DNA from: a bacterium
GTDB taxonomy: Bacteria > Patescibacteriota > Andersenbacteria > UBA10190
NCBI GenBank assembly: GCA_030698495.1
Contig: JAUYKA010000008.1
Span: 14,895-78,894, forward strand
DNA length: 64,000 nucleotides
Reading direction: 5' to 3'
In this document: positions 2,274-55,396 of the stretch, one piece after another
Layout: the number at the start of each line of letters is the position of its first letter
Position numbering within the stretch: position 1 is the first letter of the stretch
Notes under the pieces: generated by a model
Database searches by the model: none
Told to the model about the DNA's origin: nothing
The model's input: only the letters and a program-made list of their open reading frames with translations
Program-made: the position numbers and the translations under genes

Positions 2274-4712
2274 CTATTCAACTTTTGAAAGTACGATCAG
2301 GATTGTGATGGCAGATACTAAACTGATGAGACTGCCCCAAATAAAAGAGTTTGGCAGAAACTTTATAGTGATTGTTTGTCCGATATCCGCGGCGGATATA
2401 TAAAATGCGGGGCGGAAGTTTTGGGCGAAAACTGAACGATTCGACGCGCGCCAACCGGCGGCGTATTTTTGGTTGACAATGATCGTATCTTGGCCGTTGT
2501 CCGGTGTAATTGAGTTTACTTTGAAGGTAATTTTGTTGGGGGTGTATTGTATTAATGTAATACCGCTGCCGTTTTGCGCGAATAATTCGCCGCGGTATCG
2601 CTCGTTTTGGTGTCCGGTTATGGAGGCGTTAGATTGCCAGAGTTGAAGATGCGCCGGGCACTGATTGGCGGCACCGTCGCCTGCGTTGACGGTATGATAG
2701 CTGATGTCATTTCTGTTTTCTTCTTGGGTGAAGGTATTGCCATAGGGGCTGGCGGTTATAGGGGGCAGACTAAATATCTGCTGCCATGGATATGCCGCTG
2801 TCAGACTAAGATCTATGAATATTATACCTGCAACAATTGTAGTAACGGCGGGTCTAAAAGCAATTGGTAAGAAACGATTGATAATGGTTTGGGTGCCCAT
2901 GGCCGCCAGAAGAGAAAGGGCGAGGACAACCATAATCATTGCTCTGCCGGAGTTGCGGAGTTGGTTGAGTACGGGGAAAAAATCAATAAAGCTATGACTG
3001 GCAGGGGCGGTTACAATAAGCAAAAAGGAGAGACCGGATATGATAAAAAGGAAAAAGAGAAGACGGCGGCGTACTTGAAGGATGGCGGTTAAACCGGCAA
3101 GCGCTAATATTAGCGGAAACCAACCGATATAGGAGGAGTATTCGTGCCAAGGTTGTTCCAGCCAAGGCAGGAAATAATATAAATCAATATGTCGGTCGAG
3201 GAGGACGGTGGGTACATGAAGCCAGGGAGTGCCGTTGTTTTTTGCGAGTGCTCCGCTGACATAGCGGAGAAAATCCAGGATAGGCAAAATTTTTATAGCA
3301 CCCAGGGAGAGGGTTAGAATAAAAAATATACAAGTGTTGCGAATGATGGTTGATCTTAGGGGTGAGAGAAAGATAGCAACAAGAGCAGAAAATAAGATTA
3401 TAAAAAGAGATATATAGGTTACTAGATGCACGCGGCCTTCCAGTAAAATAAGAAGTAAAAATATTACCGACATAATAATATATCGGCGTTTCCTGAAAGA
3501 GCGGAGAAAGTAATAAAAAACCCAGGGGACCCAGGCCACTGATAGCCAGAGGAGTTGTCCGGCGGCAAGATGACTAGAGACGAAGCCATTGCCCATAAAT
3601 ATAATTGCTGGAATCAGGGCGGATGCTTTACTTAGCTTTAATTGGAGAGAGAGTAAATATGATCCTATAAGCCCAAGTGCTAGGTATGTGGTAATGGCTA
3701 TTTTAGAACCGATTATATCTCCGAAAACAATAGTGAGAAGGAAGGTTAGGGATGGCCAATAAGTTTGTGGATTGCCCCAACTGGGCGAGCCGCCGCAAAA
3801 GTAGGGATTCCAGAGGGGGAATTGTCCGGCCGCTAAGCTGTGCCGGGCGGCGCTGTAATGACTGGCCGCTTCGGTCCAGTCCCATGTCCCCCAATTGGTT
3901 GCGTTTTGATATACCGGTAAGGAGAAAAACAAAGCCAGGATAATAAATAATAAAATAGGCGGAGATGACAGGAGGCGGTGACTTTTAATTTGTCTGGCTA
4001 TTAAAAGTGATTCGATAGCAACCAGAGCTAGAAAAACAATGAGTACGATGTCGTATAGGCGTGATTGTTCGAATATCAAAGATTGAAGCCGTTGCAGAAA
4101 AGAGGCGCGGTAATAAGTGCGGAAGCTTAAGCTATTGGGTTTTACGCGGCCATTAACGGATATACTGCCGTCGGTGTATTTTGTGGCATCAATTTCCGAT
4201 GGAAGTAGTAATCCTTCGGCATCCGTTCGTAAGGAAAATTGGGAGGTAGTACCGGTTTTTAGAGAAACCGGTTCAAATCGGAATAACAACCAGCGGCCGG
4301 GTGTCAACGACTGTTCATTAAGAGCCGGTTGATTCGATTGCGAAGTAATAAGAAAATTTTGTATGTTATCGGTGCGGCTGACGACTATGGTTCCTGACGA
4401 AGACTTGACGGTAAAAGTTCCGTTAATATTTTTATCACCGGCAGTGTCCGGCTTGATTTGGACGGCGATGCCCGAGATAGGCTGACGTGTGACCAGGAAA
4501 CTTTGTGTGATTGTGTCGTGGGCGTCGAAGGTATGTTCGGAGCCAGGGAGAACGGCGAGTGATTGATCGGTAAGATTGGACGGCGCTGCAAGGAAAGCCA
4601 AAACAAAGCGCGCGGAGATAAAGACGATAACCAGGCAAATAATAACAGCAAATGACGCGGTTATTATCGATGTGGGTTTTAGCGCGGAACTATGAAAGAC
4701 TGGATCGCGCAT
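2274..4712 (-). CDS. YfhO-family polytopic membrane protein, a putative GT-C glycosyltransferase for extracytoplasmic glycosylation.
   Basis: 812 aa with more than 10 TM helices and the motif AAGQFPLWNPYFCGGSPSWGNP. It has a large C-terminal extracytoplasmic domain with AAGWRASN and a final TM anchor. Confidence 0.7.
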   Translation of the reverse strand: MRDPVFHSSALKPTSIITASFAVIICLVIVFISARFVLAFLAAPSNLTDQSLAVLPGSEHTFDAHDTITQSFLVTRQPISGIAVQIKPDTAGDKNINGTFTVKSSSGTIVVSRTDNIQNFLITSQSNQPALNEQSLTPGRWLLFRFEPVSLKTGTTSQFSLRTDAEGLLLPSEIDATKYTDGSISVNGRVKPNSLSFRTYYRASFLQRLQSLIFEQSRLYDIVLIVFLALVAIESLLIARQIKSHRLLSSPPILLFIILALFFSLPVYQNATNWGTWDWTEAASHYSAARHSLAAGQFPLWNPYFCGGSPSWGNPQTYWPSLTFLLTIVFGDIIGSKIAITTYLALGLIGSYLLSLQLKLSKASALIPAIIFMGNGFVSSHLAAGQLLWLSVAWVPWVFYYFLRSFRKRRYIIMSVIFLLLILLEGRVHLVTYISLFIILFSALVAIFLSPLRSTIIRNTCIFFILTLSLGAIKILPILDFLRYVSGALAKNNGTPWLHVPTVLLDRHIDLYYFLPWLEQPWHEYSSYIGWFPLILALAGLTAILQVRRRLLFFLFIISGLSFLLIVTAPASHSFIDFFPVLNQLRNSGRAMIMVVLALSLLAAMGTQTIINRFLPIAFRPAVTTIVAGIIFIDLSLTAAYPWQQIFSLPPITASPYGNTFTQEENRNDISYHTVNAGDGAANQCPAHLQLWQSNASITGHQNERYRGELFAQNGSGITLIQYTPNKITFKVNSITPDNGQDTIIVNQKYAAGWRASNRSVFAQNFRPAFYISAADIGQTITIKFLPNSFIWGSLISLVSAITILIVLSKVE

Positions 4713-48637: not shown

Positions 48638-48737
48638 AATAAGTCTCCTACAACTTCAAGGTGGGATTGAATTGCCAAACGAACGATATTCGAATATATT
48701 GCAGATACTAAGTTATGTCAAGCGTGGTGGCGAATAA

Positions 48738-48863
48738 CTAGATTGCCGCGCCCGCCTATATTTTGCTGAAGCAAAACATAGGCGGGCTCCAGCCGTCGCT
48801 AATCCCACTTTACTAAAGCTACGCGGGACACAGAGCTATGGCCGGCACAGCGCAATGACGACG
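48738..48863. repeat. Intergenic repeat element, copy A. It contains a 17-bp-stem hairpin and the motif GCTATGGCCGGCACAGCGCAATGACG. It is related to 51541..51615.
   Basis: It shares tagattgccgcg...ctccagccg...gctaa...agctatggc(c/t)ggc(a/g)cagcgcaatgacg with copy B. The hairpin gcccgcctatattttgc/gcaaaacataggcgggc is at about 48747..48786. Confidence 0.45.
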
Positions 48864-48929
48864 ACTTTCACGTCAGCGAGCAGTTACTTAGAGACGATAG
48901 CTATGCTCAATTAAAGGAAGGTAAATAAT

Positions 48930-50096
48930 ATGAAAGTAGCCTATTTGACAAATTCGGGGGAGAGGACGGGGGTGGGTTTTAGGGCGGCTAATATCAGACA
49001 ATTGCTAGTATCCGATGGTATTGGGCTGGATGAGTTTTATGTTGATGGGGACAGGGGGGAGTTAAGAGTAAACGGCGAGGTACGGCAGATAATAAAAAAA
49101 TGGCCGGGAGTTTGGGGAAGTAAGACGGTTAACTGGGTCAGGTTGGGCTTGAAGACAAAAAAAGAGCTTGTGAGTGGCGGGTACGATATTGTTCATGCCA
49201 CTAATCAAACTTTGAGTTTTATAATTGACGGCAGTTTGCCGGCGGTGGTGACGGTGCATGATATTATTGAAGTGCTGGAGCCGCAAAGCGGATGGGGGGG
49301 ACTGGCGGCAAAATATTTGTATAGCGGCATAAAGAGAGCAGACCATATTATCGCGGTGTCGGAGTATACCAAGAAAACCATCATGGATTATTACGGTGTG
49401 GCGGCCGGTAAAATAACCGTGGTTTATAACGGAGTAGGCGAGGATTTTTATCCGCTGGAAAGTTTTAGGCAATCTATTGCTTATCAGCAGTGGTTGAGTC
49501 AGCTTAAAATATCAGCAGAGACAAGGGTGATATTGTATGTGGGGTCAGACCATTCTCGTAAAAACGTGATTGGCGCAGTACGGGCTTTTGCCGGGGTAAA
49601 AACTGCGCTTGAGGACGATGGGCAGAGGGCGGTGTTTGTTAAGGTGGGAAAACCGGGGCTGGCTGGCGGCCGAGAGCAATTGCTAAATGAAATTGATGAG
49701 CTGGGAATTAAGGGCAGTGTAAAGTTGATAGCGGATGTGGATAACGAGCAGTTAAACGAGTTGTATAATTTGGCGGACGTTTTGATTTACCCGTCTCGGT
49801 TTGAAGGGTTCGGCCTGCCGGTTTTACAGGCTTTCGCGGCCGGAACACCGGTGGTGACTTCGAATACGACTTCATTGCCGGAAGTCACGGGTGATGATGC
49901 AAAATACGGTAAATGCGCGGCGCTGGTTTATAATCCCGACGACATTGATCGTATGGCGGAAGGGTTAAAAGAGATATTAACTGATAATGACAGGGCGGAA
50001 GAGTTGAGGCTGGCCGGTTTGGAGCGAGCGAAGAAGTTTACCTGGGAGAAGGCAGTACAGAAAGTAAGGCGTGTTTATAGTGAATTGGCAGGTTGA
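48930..50096 (+). CDS. GT4-family glycosyltransferase.
   Basis: LIYPSRFEGFGLPVLQAFAAGTPVVTSNTTSLPEVTGD. A Shine-Dalgarno AAGGAAGG lies upstream. Confidence 0.85.
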   Translation: MKVAYLTNSGERTGVGFRAANIRQLLVSDGIGLDEFYVDGDRGELRVNGEVRQIIKKWPGVWGSKTVNWVRLGLKTKKELVSGGYDIVHATNQTLSFIIDGSLPAVVTVHDIIEVLEPQSGWGGLAAKYLYSGIKRADHIIAVSEYTKKTIMDYYGVAAGKITVVYNGVGEDFYPLESFRQSIAYQQWLSQLKISAETRVILYVGSDHSRKNVIGAVRAFAGVKTALEDDGQRAVFVKVGKPGLAGGREQLLNEIDELGIKGSVKLIADVDNEQLNELYNLADVLIYPSRFEGFGLPVLQAFAAGTPVVTSNTTSLPEVTGDDAKYGKCAALVYNPDDIDRMAEGLKEILTDNDRAEELRLAGLERAKKFTWEKAVQKVRRVYSELAG

Positions 50097-50121
50097 AAAT
50101 ATATCTATAAATAGCTTAAAT

Positions 50122-50150
50122 AAACGGCTCAACCGCCGCTTGAGCCGTTT
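50122..50150. terminator. Putative terminator hairpin after the GT4 gene.
   Basis: aaacggctcaa-ccgccgc-ttgagccgttt forms a 10-11 bp stem. The T-tract is only 3 T, so this is weak. Confidence 0.35.
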
Positions 50151-50315
50151 AGGAGTTAGCTGCTAATTTCATCTGCAGGTAGAACGGGGTTTATATTGAT
50201 GACTGGATTGCTCGGCTAAACCGGATGATGACATGCGACGTGGATCCCGGATCGTGTCCGGGATGACGACGAATAGTAAGTTGGACTTGGTATTTGTTTG
50301 TGCCATGATTAGGCT

Positions 50316-51539
50316 ATGAAAATATTGTTTTTGTCGGCCTTATATCCGCCGCAGACGCGCGGAGGCGGCGAGTTGTCAACACACTATATTGCCCAGGGAC
50401 TACGTCAAATCGGGCATGAAGTTCAAGTTGTGACGACAGGCGCGCGAAACGGAGCATATGAAGTTGAGGGCGTGCCGGTCAGGGTGTTGGCGGCTAATCT
50501 AACCGCGAAACCTTTGCTGGAAAGAAGGCATAGCCGGAAAATGGCGAAGATATTGGCGCGGGAAATTAATAGCGGTAAAAAATACGATGTCGTGCACGCA
50601 CATGATTTCAGGTCAGCTTTGGCGCTGGCGGAGTTAAACTTGCCTAACGCACTGGTAACGACACGCGATTACGCGCAGATTTGCGGTTCCCCGAATAATT
50701 TATTAGCGGACGGACGGGAATGTCCCGGCTGTACCAGTATTAAAAATGTTTTGCAAAATCGCAACGTGGTGGAAGCGCCGTTTTTGCGTAAACCGTTCAG
50801 AGTTTGGCAGTACCGGTACAATATTGGATATCGCTTGAAGGCTTTTCGTAAATTTAAACAGCAGGTTTTTATATCGCACGCACAATTGGCGGAAATAAAA
50901 AAAATACAGGATTTATCGCAAACCCAAACAACGGTGATTTATAATCCGGTACCGCCGGCTTATTTGAACAACGCTATCCAGCTGCCGGTGGGGCGGACTA
51001 TCTTGTTTGTTGGTACGATAGAATCGTATAAGGGAGTGGGGTTGTTACTGGAAGCGTTTAAACAAATAAGCCGTCAATATAACGACATCAATTTAAAGAT
51101 TGTCGGAGAAGGGGCGGGGAAGGAAGGATATCAAAACTGGGTAGAGAAAAACGGGTTACAGTACCGGGTGACTTTTGTGGGTCGGGTACCGTGGGATCAT
51201 ATGGGCAGGATTTATGATGAAGCGGCGATAGTGGTGGCGCCGCATATTTGGGTAGAACCTTTTGGCAGGACGGTCGCTGAAGCTATGGCGCGAGGTAAAA
51301 TAGTTATTAGCGCCAATATTGGCGGGCCGGCGGAGATCATCCAGCCTTTTAAGACAGGGGTATTATTCGAAAGGGGCTCCGTTGAAGATTTAATTTTATC
51401 AATTGGTGAGGTACTGGAGATGAATGAGTTCGATAAGAGGGAGATTAGCCGGGCGGCGCGAGAGTGGGTGGCGAATAATTTGAATATTGAGAAGATTGCG
51501 CGGGAATATGAGGAAGTTTACAAGAATTATTTGTGTTAG
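50316..51539 (+). CDS. GT4-family glycosyltransferase.
   Basis: It has ILFLSALYPPQTRGGGE and VVAPHIWVEPFGRTVAEAMARGKIVISANIGGPAEII. Confidence 0.85.
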   Translation: MKILFLSALYPPQTRGGGELSTHYIAQGLRQIGHEVQVVTTGARNGAYEVEGVPVRVLAANLTAKPLLERRHSRKMAKILAREINSGKKYDVVHAHDFRSALALAELNLPNALVTTRDYAQICGSPNNLLADGRECPGCTSIKNVLQNRNVVEAPFLRKPFRVWQYRYNIGYRLKAFRKFKQQVFISHAQLAEIKKIQDLSQTQTTVIYNPVPPAYLNNAIQLPVGRTILFVGTIESYKGVGLLLEAFKQISRQYNDINLKIVGEGAGKEGYQNWVEKNGLQYRVTFVGRVPWDHMGRIYDEAAIVVAPHIWVEPFGRTVAEAMARGKIVISANIGGPAEIIQPFKTGVLFERGSVEDLILSIGEVLEMNEFDKREISRAAREWVANNLNIEKIAREYEEVYKNYLC

Positions 51540-52753
51540 TTAGATTGCCGCGTCTCGCGATTTATCACGCACCTCCAGCCGGCGCTAAAGCTATGGCTGG
51601 CGCAGCGCAATGACGTTGCTTTAGAAACAATATCGGGTAAAACCATTTCGGGTGCTAGTTTTAGAAGGGTGGGATGGGTGTTTGAACCAAAATTGTAATT
51701 AGTATTGACGTCATAAACCGGTGTGGTTTCAGGGGCGCGAACCGACCAGCTTTGCCGGCCGCGAGGACCGGTTTTATTTTCATCGGTAGGGCCGAATAAA
51801 CCAAGGGTGGGTGTGCCAACGATGGCGGCTAGATGCATAAGTCCGGAGTCGTTGGATATAAAAAGTTGGCAGTTTTTCATGATGGCGGCGGTAGTGAGGA
51901 GATTGGTGGTATTTAGTATTTTGTATTTAGTATTTTGCCGCTTTAAAAGCTCTCCTAGTTTTTGCTTGATATCATTTTCATCATTACCGCCAAAGATGAG
52001 AAATATTGTTTGTTGATAGCGTGTTTGATTGGTGAGTAGTTCGGCTAGTTTGGCAAAGTTTTCTAATGGCCAGCGTTTCCATTTGAATTCCTGGCTGGAG
52101 CCGGGATGGAGGCCAACGAGGGTCGTCCCGGGTGGTATGTTGAGCGATTTTAAGATTTTATTTGCTTGTGCAGTTAATTTATTGGGGATGTTTATTTTGT
52201 AGGACGACCCAATTTCCAATTTCCCAGCCGTTGTTTGCGAGCTATGGCCGGCAAGGCAATTTCCCAGCCGTTGCTTGCGAGCTATGGCCGGCAAGGCAAT
52301 TTCCAATTTTGACAGTAAGTTGAGGTTTTGTTCTATGTCATGGAGTTTCGGGTTTGGCGGGACTGAATCTGTCAGTAAGAAACCGCTTTGCGGGTTATGA
52401 CGATAGGGATATTGATGGGCGAGACGTTTGGGGATGCCGGCTAAGTACATATAGGCGGCGCCTTTCCATAATTGGCCGGGGTGGAGCATGATGGCGATGT
52501 CATAATGGCCGCGGCGCAGACGCCACAGTTGTTGATAGTGGAAAAGAAGCGACCCTCTGATTGGCGCTTCGATAACTTCGTCGATATACGGATTGGTTTG
52601 AGCTAAAGCTTTAGTACCGCGTGGGGCAACCCAAACGACTAGACGGGCGTGAGGGTAGTGTTGTTTTAATGTGCGGAAGACCGGCGATTGTATGAGAAAA
52701 TTGCCAATACCGGCAAGAGAAAGTATCAGAATATTGGGTGATTTTTTTGACAT
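51536..52753 (-). CDS. GT9-family glycosyltransferase (ADP-heptose:LPS heptosyltransferase-like).
   Basis: The N-terminus has ILILSLAGIGNFLIQSPVFRTLKQHYPHARLVVWV. The C-terminus has LFISNDSGLMHLAAIVGTPTLGLFGPTD. Confidence 0.8.
   Translation of the reverse strand: MSKKSPNILILSLAGIGNFLIQSPVFRTLKQHYPHARLVVWVAPRGTKALAQTNPYIDEVIEAPIRGSLLFHYQQLWRLRRGHYDIAIMLHPGQLWKGAAYMYLAGIPKRLAHQYPYRHNPQSGFLLTDSVPPNPKLHDIEQNLNLLSKLEIALPAIARKQRLGNCLAGHSSQTTAGKLEIGSSYKINIPNKLTAQANKILKSLNIPPGTTLVGLHPGSSQEFKWKRWPLENFAKLAELLTNQTRYQQTIFLIFGGNDENDIKQKLGELLKRQNTKYKILNTTNLLTTAAIMKNCQLFISNDSGLMHLAAIVGTPTLGLFGPTDENKTGPRGRQSWSVRAPETTPVYDVNTNYNFGSNTHPTLLKLAPEMVLPDIVSKATSLRCASHSFSAGWRCVINRETRQSN
51541..51615. repeat. Repeat element copy B, a short version of 48738..48863. 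It overlaps the 3-prime end of the GT9 gene.
   Basis: tagattgccgcg...ctccagccggcgctaaagctatggctggcgcagcgcaatgacg. It encodes the last roughly 25 aa of the predicted GT9 protein. Confidence 0.45.
52217..52296. repeat. Perfect-but-one 40-bp tandem duplication inside the GT9 coding sequence. The unit is caatttcccagccgttg(t/c)ttgcgagctatggccggcaagg.
   Basis: The two units are at 52217..52256 and 52257..52296 and differ at one base. Caatttc heptamers flank them. The unit shares gctatggccggca with the intergenic repeats. Confidence 0.8.
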
Positions 52754-52833: not shown

Positions 52834-53223
52834 ATGAAGAAAAATGAAATATACCGAGTGTTTGTGTCAACGGGAACGAGAAATAGAAGCGCGGTGGATT
52901 GGTGGTGCCGTCAGGTTATCAGTCACGGTTGTATGCCAGAGATAATCGCGCCCGGTGACTTAGAGGCTGCGTTTTTGGTTTCATCCGTTCACGATGCTTT
53001 TTTGATTGATTTTGTTAATCCGGTGGAAGCGCCGGTTTTGGCCAGGTGCATTTACTTGATCAAGCGAGTATATCCGCGGAGATTGGCGCTGGTGCTGGTA
53101 TCCCAAGACGATCCGCTGGATATGGTGCGTCTGTTTGACGATATGATGTGGGTGCACCGCCATAACTGGGATATGCAGTGCGATTTGGCGAGAATATCCC
53201 GACGGGACATTGAAGCGGCGTAA
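52834..53223 (+). CDS. Hypothetical small soluble protein with a possible degenerate receiver-like (flavodoxin-like) fold.
   Basis: 129 aa with an alternating beta-alpha pattern (YRVFVSTG / DAFLIDF / LALVLVS). It lacks the canonical DD. Speculative. Confidence 0.35.
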   Translation: MKKNEIYRVFVSTGTRNRSAVDWWCRQVISHGCMPEIIAPGDLEAAFLVSSVHDAFLIDFVNPVEAPVLARCIYLIKRVYPRRLALVLVSQDDPLDMVRLFDDMMWVHRHNWDMQCDLARISRRDIEAA

Positions 53224-54503: not shown

Positions 54504-54567
54504 AGTATTTGTCATTTGGGCTTTGACATTGATTTAGTATTTGTCATTTGGGCTTTGACATTTAGTA
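54504..54567. repeat. 32-bp tandem direct repeat x2 (agtatttgtcatttgggctttgacatt...) spanning the stop codon of the GT2 gene.
   Basis: The copies are at 54504..54530 and 54536..54562. Copy 2 encodes NVKAQMTNT and copy 1 contains the TGA stop. A CAAAT-rich tract lies upstream at 54443..54498. Confidence 0.7.
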
Positions 54568-55396
54568 GATATTTGTTTCCCATTTCAAATTCATAATAAG
54601 CTGACAAGAGGCACCAAACTATACCAGACCAGCCATCCAGTATGCCGCGGCGGTAAAATAATAGTTTGATTAGTTGGTGCAGAGCTAGATAGTAGGGCAG
54701 AAAAAACGATGGGGAAACTTTGCGTCCCGAGCGGTGGCGACCGGTTTCGGCCATCAGGGAGGCATCGAGCGTGGTGTAATGGTGCATTTTTGTTAGGTAG
54801 GATTTTACGGTTTGGTGCGAATAATGGAGGAGGGGGGTTTCCAGGATTTTCGTGTCTTGGTCGCCTAGGTGGATCACATTTTGTTGCTTAGAGATTGCCG
54901 CGTCGTCGCCAGAGGCTCCTCCTCGCAATGACGGTATTACGCGAGTCACTTGTTCGTGGACTTTGTCGTCTGTCCAGCGGGCGGTGTCTTTTTTAAATAA
55001 ACGCAAGTTGTGCCCGTAGAGATGATTTAAGGGTTTGCCCAGAAAAACAGTTACTATTTTGAGCCAGTAATAATTAATGTATTTTGTATTTTGTATTTTG
55101 TATTTTGCGGTGACGGTCTTTATTTCATTGGCGAGTTCCGGTGATACTTCTTCATCGGCGTCGATAAATAATACCCACTCTCCGGAAGCGTGTTTAAGAC
55201 CGACGTTTTTTTGCGGGCCATAACCAAGCCAGCTTTGTTTAATTACTTGGGCGCCTAGGGTGTGAGCTATATCTACGGTGTTATCGGTGCTGTCTGAATC
55301 GACGATAATTTTTTGGTTAACAAAGTTAAGACCGTTCAGGCAGCGGCTGATGTTGGACTCTTCGTTTTTGGTGATGGTGACGGAAGTTATACTCAT
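54512..55396 (-). CDS. GT2-family glycosyltransferase of the WaaE/KdtX (LPS-core-type) subfamily.
   Basis: SVTITKNEESNISRCLNGL...IIVDSDSTDNTVDIA...GEWVLFIDADEEV closely matches the WaaE/KdtX N-terminal signature. Confidence 0.8.
   Translation of the reverse strand: MSITSVTITKNEESNISRCLNGLNFVNQKIIVDSDSTDNTVDIAHTLGAQVIKQSWLGYGPQKNVGLKHASGEWVLFIDADEEVSPELANEIKTVTAKYKIQNTKYINYYWLKIVTVFLGKPLNHLYGHNLRLFKKDTARWTDDKVHEQVTRVIPSLRGGASGDDAAISKQQNVIHLGDQDTKILETPLLHYSHQTVKSYLTKMHHYTTLDASLMAETGRHRSGRKVSPSFFLPYYLALHQLIKLLFYRRGILDGWSGIVWCLLSAYYEFEMGNKYLLNVKAQMTNTKSMSKPK
55078..55105. repeat. Heptanucleotide tandem repeat (TGTATTT)x4 inside the WaaE-like GT2 coding sequence.
   Basis: There are four perfect 7-nt units, followed by tg. 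The unit length is not a multiple of 3. Confidence 0.85.

Follow-up and report, generated by a model that had tools for sequence, protein, structure and literature searches.

The window analyzed here is a 64,000-nt stretch of DNA from a bacterium of the Andersenbacteria (assembly GCA_030698495.1, contig JAUYKA010000008.1, positions 14,895 to 78,894), and the feature that concerns us is a tandem repeat of two 40-bp units inside an intact gene for a heptosyltransferase-like enzyme of glycosyltransferase family 9 (GT9). An earlier note on this DNA had dwelt on the reading frames of the two units and on what gain or loss of a unit would do to the gene. That reading overlooked the main point: what is repeated is a copy of a hairpin element that is dispersed across phyla and here lies nested in a tract of heptamers. 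The genes and features at the locus, in window coordinates, are the following.

50316-51539, plus strand: GT4 glycosyltransferase gene, convergent with the GT9 gene, its stop codon overlapping the GT9 stop
51536-52753, minus strand: intact GT9 (heptosyltransferase-like) gene of 405 aa, an open reading frame (ORF) with a match to Pfam PF01075
52210-52223, minus strand: two heptamers (GAAATTG) on the 3′-side of the blocks in the coding direction
52217-52296, minus strand: tandem repeat of 2 x 40 bp, each unit a heptamer plus a 33-bp hairpin block
52224-52256, plus strand: hairpin block A1, the sister copy of A2 with a C-to-T change at 52234, translated as CLAGHSSQTTAG
52257-52263, minus strand: heptamer separating blocks A1 and A2
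52264-52296, plus strand in the sense of the motif and antisense to the GT9 gene: hairpin block A2 (CCAGCCGTTGCTTGCGAGCTATGGCCGGCAAGG), translated as ALPAIARKQRLG
52297-52310, minus strand: two heptamers (GAAATTG, AAAATTG) on the 5′-side of the blocks in the coding direction

A repeat search returned the head-to-tail pair at 52217-52256 and 52257-52296 with 98% identity, and Tandem Repeats Finder placed it at 52217-52304 with a period of 40, 2.2 copies, 97% matches, and a score of 169, which bears out the earlier description of a 40-bp duplication whose units are one base apart. The sole mismatch is T at 52234 versus C at 52274. Each 40-mer is a composite of a 7-bp unit (GAAATTG on the coding strand) and a 33-bp block, and the heptamer also flanks the repeat pair (52210-52216, 52297-52303, and 52304-52310), giving the coding-strand order AAAATTG GAAATTG (block) GAAATTG (block) GAAATTG GAAATTG GG. 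Elsewhere in the window the 33-nt core has 0 matches at up to three mismatches, the same number that shuffled sequences give.

Because 33 is a multiple of 3 and 40 (33 + 7) is not, the two copies are read in different frames. In the coding direction the upstream unit translates as ALPAIARKQRLG (aa 153-164) and the downstream unit, in another frame, as CLAGHSSQTTAG (aa 166-177), as the earlier note had described. In simulation, alleles carrying 0, 1, 3, or 4 of the 40-bp units stop after 164, 173, 183, and 183 aa, respectively, and a heptamer added or removed likewise truncates the protein, whereas deletion of one 33-mer or both leaves the frame intact. The claim that the gene stays in frame only in the two-copy state, so that gain or loss of a unit truncates the protein, therefore stands for changes of a whole 40-bp unit.

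Relative to an uninterrupted linker, the net insertion is 66 bp (22 codons), and the gene is still in frame. Taking out both blocks, and with them these 66 bp, leaves KLEIGNWKLEIGSSY. Two homologs, P0005 and P0007, have an uninterrupted heptamer linker, LEIENWKLKIGAPY, that is colinear with this sequence; both read LLS(C/S)LEIENWKLKIGAPY at the corresponding site and encode it with the same heptamer tract, TTGGAAATTGAAAATTGGAAATTGAAAATTGGGG. The block-free linker of the query, LLSKLEIGNWKLEIGSSY, equals that of P0007, LLSSLEIENWKLKIGAPY, in length, and its nucleotide identity is 43/54 to P0007 and 42/54 to P0005, compared with 56 to 57% over the whole gene. The anchor-to-anchor distance across the linker is 88 aa in the query and 66 aa in P0005, in P0007, and in the query without its blocks, and the mode among 120 homologs is 63 to 65 aa. 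Aligned in this way, orthologs are shown to have this heptamer linker but no blocks, the five heptamers of the query form a tract homologous to the P0005 and P0007 linker, and the net change in the lineage is, on this alignment, exactly two 33-bp blocks at adjacent heptamer boundaries. The earlier note had set against its own proposal the prospect of a uniform two-copy state and of orthologs in which the same segment is ordinary conserved linker. Two assemblies do agree on two copies, as described below, but the orthologs lack the 80-bp segment, which is thus not ordinary conserved linker.

The block has relatives far beyond this gene. A scan with a 20-nt core across one genome per species gave a single match, in a Peribacteria metagenome-assembled genome (MAG), that extended over nearly the whole block. 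A degenerate pattern (CCAGCCGNYGYT, 0-30 nt, AGCTATGGCYGGC) matched at least 120 stretches in JGI metagenomes; the same pattern had 0 matches in IMG/VR and blastn found no match among the plasmids of PLSDB, so the element is not evidently viral or plasmid-borne. One pattern match, at locus L091, was rejected as a chance match to the native coding sequence of a frataxin/CyaY motif, which implies that a few of the metagenome matches are false. Common to the matches is a 12-bp stem (CCAGCCGUCGCU/AGCUAUGGCUGG) with one C.U mismatch, capped by a helix that varies in length and sequence (60 distinct middles). The apical extensions fold at -7.9 kcal/mol versus -2.9 kcal/mol in shuffles, and three variable apical pairs contain 32 double-change cells versus 9.9 +/- 3.2 in shuffled data, a count that 0 of 500 shuffles reached. 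Such compensating changes, read from aligned copies, indicate selection on the structure of the family.

A covariance model of this CCAGCCG...AGCTATGGCYGGC hairpin family, R1, was built from 62 metagenome copies and no window sequence. It recovers the Peribacteria copy and scores block A2 at 38.5 bits (E 3.5e-8, at 52260-52298) and block A1 at 29.3 bits (E 1.1e-5, at 52220-52258), matches that show the 33-bp block to belong, by its sequence, to a widespread hairpin family; at the loci of four homologs of the GT9 gene R1 had no match. The A blocks are laid out as CCAGCCGTTGCT-TGCG-AGCTATGGCCGGC. They carry A.C and U.U mismatches and fold no better than shuffles (z -0.44 and +0.63). Neither the 33-mers nor the 114-nt region as a whole exceed shuffles in hairpin potential, and from the A blocks by themselves a structured element would not have been recognized. 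Both have the rare GTTG variant of the stem (T at stem position 9, present in 1 of 62 family members) and a TGCG loop; sharing this rare T and the same loop, the blocks are copies of each other and not independent arrivals from different sources. Rfam 15 gave no match at gathering score in the window and nothing relevant at E up to 10 in 48700-52350, and at E up to 1 across 15 loci it returned only adjacent tRNAs and a signal recognition particle RNA. A literature search with sequence strings and with themes such as repetitive extragenic palindromic (REP) sequences and tRNA-downstream hairpins found no relevant description in searchable papers.

The hosts of the family include Andersenbacteria, Peribacteria, and candidate division TM6, and the fetched loci span 28 to 70% GC. 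Many copies begin at the CCA end of a tRNA gene, always in the orientation of the tRNA, and the adjoining tRNAs are of many specificities (Leu, Ser, Lys, Thr, Val, Met, Ala, Arg, and Tyr); one tRNA-linked contig encodes a protein recorded from a candidate division TM6 MAG. The tRNA-hairpin arrangement is seen in low-GC contigs (L023, L026, L029, L031, L040, L049, L052, L065, L067, L082, L100, and others). After the hairpin there usually comes RRGCCA(G), a sequence that could form an alternative helix by pairing with the 3′ arm. Other copies lie between genes. Across 118 instances, 47 copies lie near gene 3′ ends and 28 near 5′ ends. Orientation relative to the 3′ ends of protein genes is nearly balanced (27 versus 20), and with so weak a bias we do not claim a directional function at 3′ ends.

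Copies also lie in frame within genes. One RNase R has an in-frame insertion of 10 aa in its RNB domain, at a point where three solved homologs have a gap; an E2 acyltransferase carries in-frame copies in its inter-lipoyl linkers, SPAIASATAG and SPAIASASAG; and further in-frame copies are found in the C-terminal region of DnaX and in an HhH-GPD glycosylase. In the E2 gene (L024, 7584-9185, on the 706-kb contig JACXTT010000001.1) both decapeptides follow nearly identical lipoyl domains, and its two copies probably arose through domain duplication. Adjacent hairpin pairs occur at loci L011 and L041. The L011 pair (3291-3362, minus strand) has the same 40-nt start-to-start spacing as the pair in the window, with loops CCGTCG and CTGCGG, and is flanked by TAGGGT-like short repeats; copies within short tandem repeats are also seen in L032, L020, L037, and L121. 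Direct repeats of at least 8 nt flank 7.0% of copies versus 1.7% of controls and are suggestive for L032, L048, L111, and L121. Target-site duplication as a general mode of insertion was rejected, since only this minority subset is enriched and a 7-bp duplication at the GT9 locus would imply an out-of-frame ancestor.

Related copies in the window lie at 48789-48846 and 51575-51601; R1 places them in the slightly wider spans below, and one of them lies within the reach of the GT9 reading frame.

48785-48852, plus strand: hairpin copy B, intergenic, with a 33-nt apical insertion (R1 39.6 bits, E 1.7e-8)
51571-51607, plus strand: hairpin copy C, in the convergent spacer after the GT4 gene (R1 43.3 bits, E 1.6e-9)

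The product of the gene that carries the repeat is predicted to be a heptosyltransferase-like enzyme. It matches Pfam PF01075 (Glyco_transf_9) over aa 78-340 with 114.4 bits against a curated cut-off of 22 (E 7.1e-33), it keeps 53/53 invariant columns in an alignment of 22 sequences, and NCBI holds an identical protein recorded as a GT9 protein of a Candidatus Andersenbacteria MAG. The AlphaFold model has a mean predicted local distance difference test score (pLDDT) of 86.7 and a predicted template modelling score of 0.85, and the best PDB matches returned by Foldseek are WaaF (1psw, E 5.9e-22), a Veillonella GT9 protein (3tov), and WaaC (6dfe), with target-normalised TM-scores of 0.77 to 0.81. 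The modelled protein thus has the two-lobe GT-B fold of solved heptosyltransferases. It resembles WaaC and WaaF in PF01075 and in the GT-B fold and differs from them in a 22-aa inter-lobe insert and a tail of ~25 aa. The pLDDT falls below 50 only at aa 158-182, the insert, and at aa 387-405, and both segments are encoded by hairpins; in the model, the insert forms a disordered loop where the linker joins the two Rossmann-like lobes. The tail arises because the ORF, with no stop at the usual place, continues across all of the convergent spacer, hairpin copy C included, as far as a TAA that shares bases with the GT4 stop codon TAG (TTAG at 51536-51539). This C-terminal extension of ~25 aa (window 51539-51619, aa 379-405), ending ...ATSLRCASHSFSAGWRCVINRETRQSN, is not present in homologs. 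The neighbors of the gene form a conserved envelope-glycan cluster of GT4s, a GT2, a polysaccharide deacetylase, and a TagF-like enzyme, and homolog loci have similar neighbor genes. Since this is a monoderm-type bacterium of the candidate phyla radiation (CPR) without lipopolysaccharide (LPS), and from the content of the cluster, the acceptor of the enzyme is probably an envelope glycan other than LPS.

We consider it probable that the 80-bp feature is a tolerated, in-frame insertion of a hairpin repeat resembling REP sequences and Rickettsia palindromic elements (RPEs), locally duplicated in a permissive GT9 linker, and not a programmed switch. One hairpin copy would have arrived in frame at a permissive site. 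From there, a 40-bp tandem duplication could have formed by slippage on the flanking heptamers, followed by loss of one heptamer (+33 +40 -7 = +66); alternatively, a second exact 33-bp insertion could have occurred one heptamer away. Both routes fit the data. The first corresponds to the compensated frameshift suggested in the earlier note, a +40 duplication balanced by loss of one 7-bp unit, and that suggestion therefore matches one of two possible histories, while a history of two insertions fits as well. The pair would since have been carried as a tolerated passenger while purifying selection acted on the gene, in which collapse by a whole unit would produce a null allele.

Several points weigh against this account. 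The slippage route needs two frameshifting steps and passes through a null intermediate, and the insertion route needs exact placement of 33 bp twice, 7 bp apart, without target duplication. Among the 11 ORFs scanned with Pfam between 46.4 and 57.3 kb there is no mobilizing enzyme or transposase. All four copies in the window lie in the same orientation within 3.5 kb, unlike what pure chance insertion would give. Conservation across phyla and regular placement after tRNA genes suggest a function, and the term passenger may understate the role of the element. Translation of the insert is itself a prediction, which the kept frame and its openness suggest.

In an alternative that we regard as unlikely, the hairpins are kept inside the gene for an action at the level of nucleic acid. 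They might, for example, stop or process antisense read-through from the GT4 gene, with copy C and then A1 and A2, all on the plus strand, acting as a series of barriers, or they might affect the stability of the GT9 mRNA or cause pausing of its translation at the domain boundary. The four window copies are oriented as the GT4 gene is and lie downstream of it or of the preceding plus-strand ORF, and, in the family at large, the placement directly after tRNA genes in the orientation of the tRNA, the excess of copies at gene 3′ ends over 5′ ends, and the compensating changes that indicate selection on structure all speak for such a role. Against it, the orientation of copies relative to protein-gene 3′ ends is close to balanced, and the A blocks are weakened by their A.C and U.U mismatches and fold no better than shuffles. 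Nor does any window copy look like a terminator: intrinsic (Rho-independent) terminators have a T-run after their GC-rich hairpin, which is lacking in 4/4 window copies, where AAGG or GCAG follows the stem.

The slipped-strand switch that the earlier note had raised, in which variation of the 40-bp units or of the heptamers would turn GT9 on (two units) or off (other states), is in our view quite improbable. Phase variation is common in surface-glycan genes, as in the lipooligosaccharide genes of Haemophilus, Neisseria, and Campylobacter, and the GT9 gene sits in a cell-envelope glycan cluster (GT4, GT2, deacetylase, and TagF-like genes) with a unit length that is not a multiple of 3, such that changes of a whole unit or of one heptamer truncate the protein. 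In these respects, a unit of non-triplet length in a surface-glycan gene and a shifting frame, the locus is like the contingency loci of Haemophilus (the tetranucleotide tracts of lic2A and lgtC) and Neisseria (the homopolymer of lgtA). Those loci, however, have many short units with measurable variation in copy number, whereas here there are 2.2 copies of 40 bp and a single ON state. Slippage would have no more than two 40-bp units and two adjacent heptamers to act upon, a third unit would fall in the frame with a TAG stop, and the return from one unit to two (OFF to ON) would require exact re-duplication. The one-base divergence of the units means, moreover, that the pair is not of very recent origin. 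A second assembly, GCA_034372665.1 (contig JAXMKP010000038.1, 2788 bp), has the identical two-copy state, so both assemblies agree across the repeat; the single-nucleotide polymorphism (SNP) between them is at 53176 (C versus A), in a small ORF (52834-53223) that has no Pfam match. Among 5.8 billion protein clusters no truncated or other-length allele was found, the next relative being 52% identical. With two diverged units, one ON state, an identical second assembly, and no alternative protein allele, the data speak against a working phase switch, although heterogeneity at a low level may still be present. To judge from how often tandem repeats are deleted in E. coli, a 40-bp repeat of this kind should collapse fairly frequently, and the survival of a pair that has diverged suggests that the intact gene is selected for.

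An assembly artefact or a decaying pseudogene, that is, a mis-assembled repeat or a frame that is open by luck, is very improbable. The source is metagenome assembled, and an ORF that runs through the convergent spacer to an odd C-terminal tail might be taken as a sign of decay. An independent assembly has the same sequence, however, with 1 SNP in 2788 bp that lies elsewhere, and a one-base difference between units is not what collapse or expansion artefacts produce; the full-length protein is obtained from this copy state only, all of the invariant residues of its homologs are kept, and the model of the GT9 fold is confident. Least probable of all is that the blocks escape translation, whether by excision from the mRNA or by ribosomal bypassing of the kind known for the byp elements of yeast mitochondria (inserts of 27-55 nt that form hairpins within ORFs, and that the A blocks resemble by analogy), because both blocks are open in the frames used and their net length is a multiple of 3, as translation requires and bypass does not, and the other in-frame copies (10 aa in RNase R, 9-10 aa in E2) are open too. 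The likeness to yeast mitochondrial GC clusters and byp extends to GC-rich hairpins of ~30-50 nt that spread through a genome and land in ORFs; the difference is that byp is skipped by the ribosome and needs no frame, whereas here frame and openness are kept, and sequence and host are unrelated.

For the tolerated insertion that we favor, the closer parallels are bacterial. RPEs are dispersed palindromic repeats found between genes and in frame within them, at permissive surface sites of host proteins that are functional, and both RPEs and the present family occur in host-dependent bacteria with reduced genomes. RPEs are ~100-150 bp long and genus restricted (Rickettsia). The present family is set apart by its size and host range, with a hairpin core of 27-51 nt in Andersenbacteria, Peribacteria, and TM6, and by the frequent fusion of the hairpin to the CCA end of tRNA genes. 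REP sequences and the bacterial interspersed mosaic elements (BIMEs) that they form are likewise short imperfect palindromes with a conserved, mismatched stem, mostly extragenic near gene 3′ ends and sometimes paired. In contrast to REPs, the hairpin consensus begins (N)CCAGCCGUCGCU and has no 5′ GTAG/GTGG tetranucleotide, nor is there a GTAG on either strand of the core; no REP-associated tyrosine transposase (RAYT) is among the 11 ORFs scanned with Pfam between 46.4 and 57.3 kb; and the hairpin is conserved across phyla instead of being species specific and has in-frame coding copies. The kind of event is thus known, and the element itself appears to be undescribed and unusually widespread.

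Some further observations concern the other copies in the window and the heptamers. The surroundings of copies B (48740-48860) and C (51542-51615) have common outer flanks, AGATTGCCGCG ... CAGCGCAATGACG, that can pair with each other (ATTGC/GCAAT). These flanks occur without the core hairpin at 54892-54933, within a GT2 ORF (54512-55396), and with a hairpin in metagenome contig L060; judged from such sequence comparisons, a larger element may exist of which the hairpin is the core. Copy B has, in addition, a perfect extra hairpin at 48750-48787. A possible degenerate copy, CGAGCCGCCGCA...AAGCTGTGCCGGGC, lies at 3786-3848 in the ORF of an 812-aa membrane protein and was found by a relaxed arm search only, not by R1.

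A second tract of (G/A)AAATTG-like heptamers (966-982 on the minus strand and 1026-1080 on the plus strand, region 960-1150) sits where a membrane-protein gene is split into two ORFs (311-985 and 1152-2273), and the split halves align to aa 297-411 and 437-807 of the neighboring 812-aa paralog (2274-4712). In this position the heptamers have the look of a sequence that itself inserts or expands. Among the GT9 homologs, P0007 (L002, 3455-3492) and P0005 (L004, 1217-1254) share an exact run of 32 nt in the heptamer tract (36 nt with the adjoining GGGG), and their genes are 57% identical in DNA. Common descent of the heptamer linker within a clade of the query, P0005, and P0007 was considered but is not supported, since the nearest relatives of P0005 and P0007 (P0058, P0048 and P0021, P0020) have ordinary linkers; the distribution of the tract is patchy, as if it had been independently acquired or converted. 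The same linker has other insertions of ~20 aa in homologs P0002 (L008) and P0009 (L009), which are encoded by GC-rich inverted repeats (for example, CCCTCCCCTTGTCAGGGGAGGG and ATCCCCCAGACAAGGGGGAT). These were rejected as instances of the same element, because R1 has no match in L008 or L009 and the palindromes, although GC rich, are different. Long linkers are also found in homologs P0011, P0082, and P0085, and in these alignments small palindromic insertions appear to have a general hot spot in the inter-lobe linker.

For the GT9 enzyme the feature is probably harmless, a disordered loop of 22 residues in a linker that tolerates insertion, and what looks in the raw sequence like a frameshift switch is the footprint of a dispersed hairpin repeat. 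It is possible, although we would stop short of calling it probable, that this repeat represents an uncatalogued cross-phylum hairpin element of ~30 nt that is standard after the tRNA CCA in candidate division TM6, dispersed in CPR and other uncultured bacteria, and able to colonize ORFs in frame. If so, it would constitute a new and very small class of coding-compatible repeat, possibly with a function at the RNA level, and the GT9 locus would be a rare snapshot of nesting and local copying. Copies of this kind inflate or distort protein predictions in MAGs, here by a 22-aa insert and a tail of ~25 aa. The conservation of the hairpin extends from Patescibacteria to candidate division TM6. It is found fused to the 3′ ends of tRNAs, is absent from Rfam 15, and can lie in frame within essential proteins. 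If the family is mobile, few known coding-compatible repeats would be smaller, and the lineages that carry it have tiny genomes; if it is a functional RNA, it would have a role at tRNA 3′ ends.

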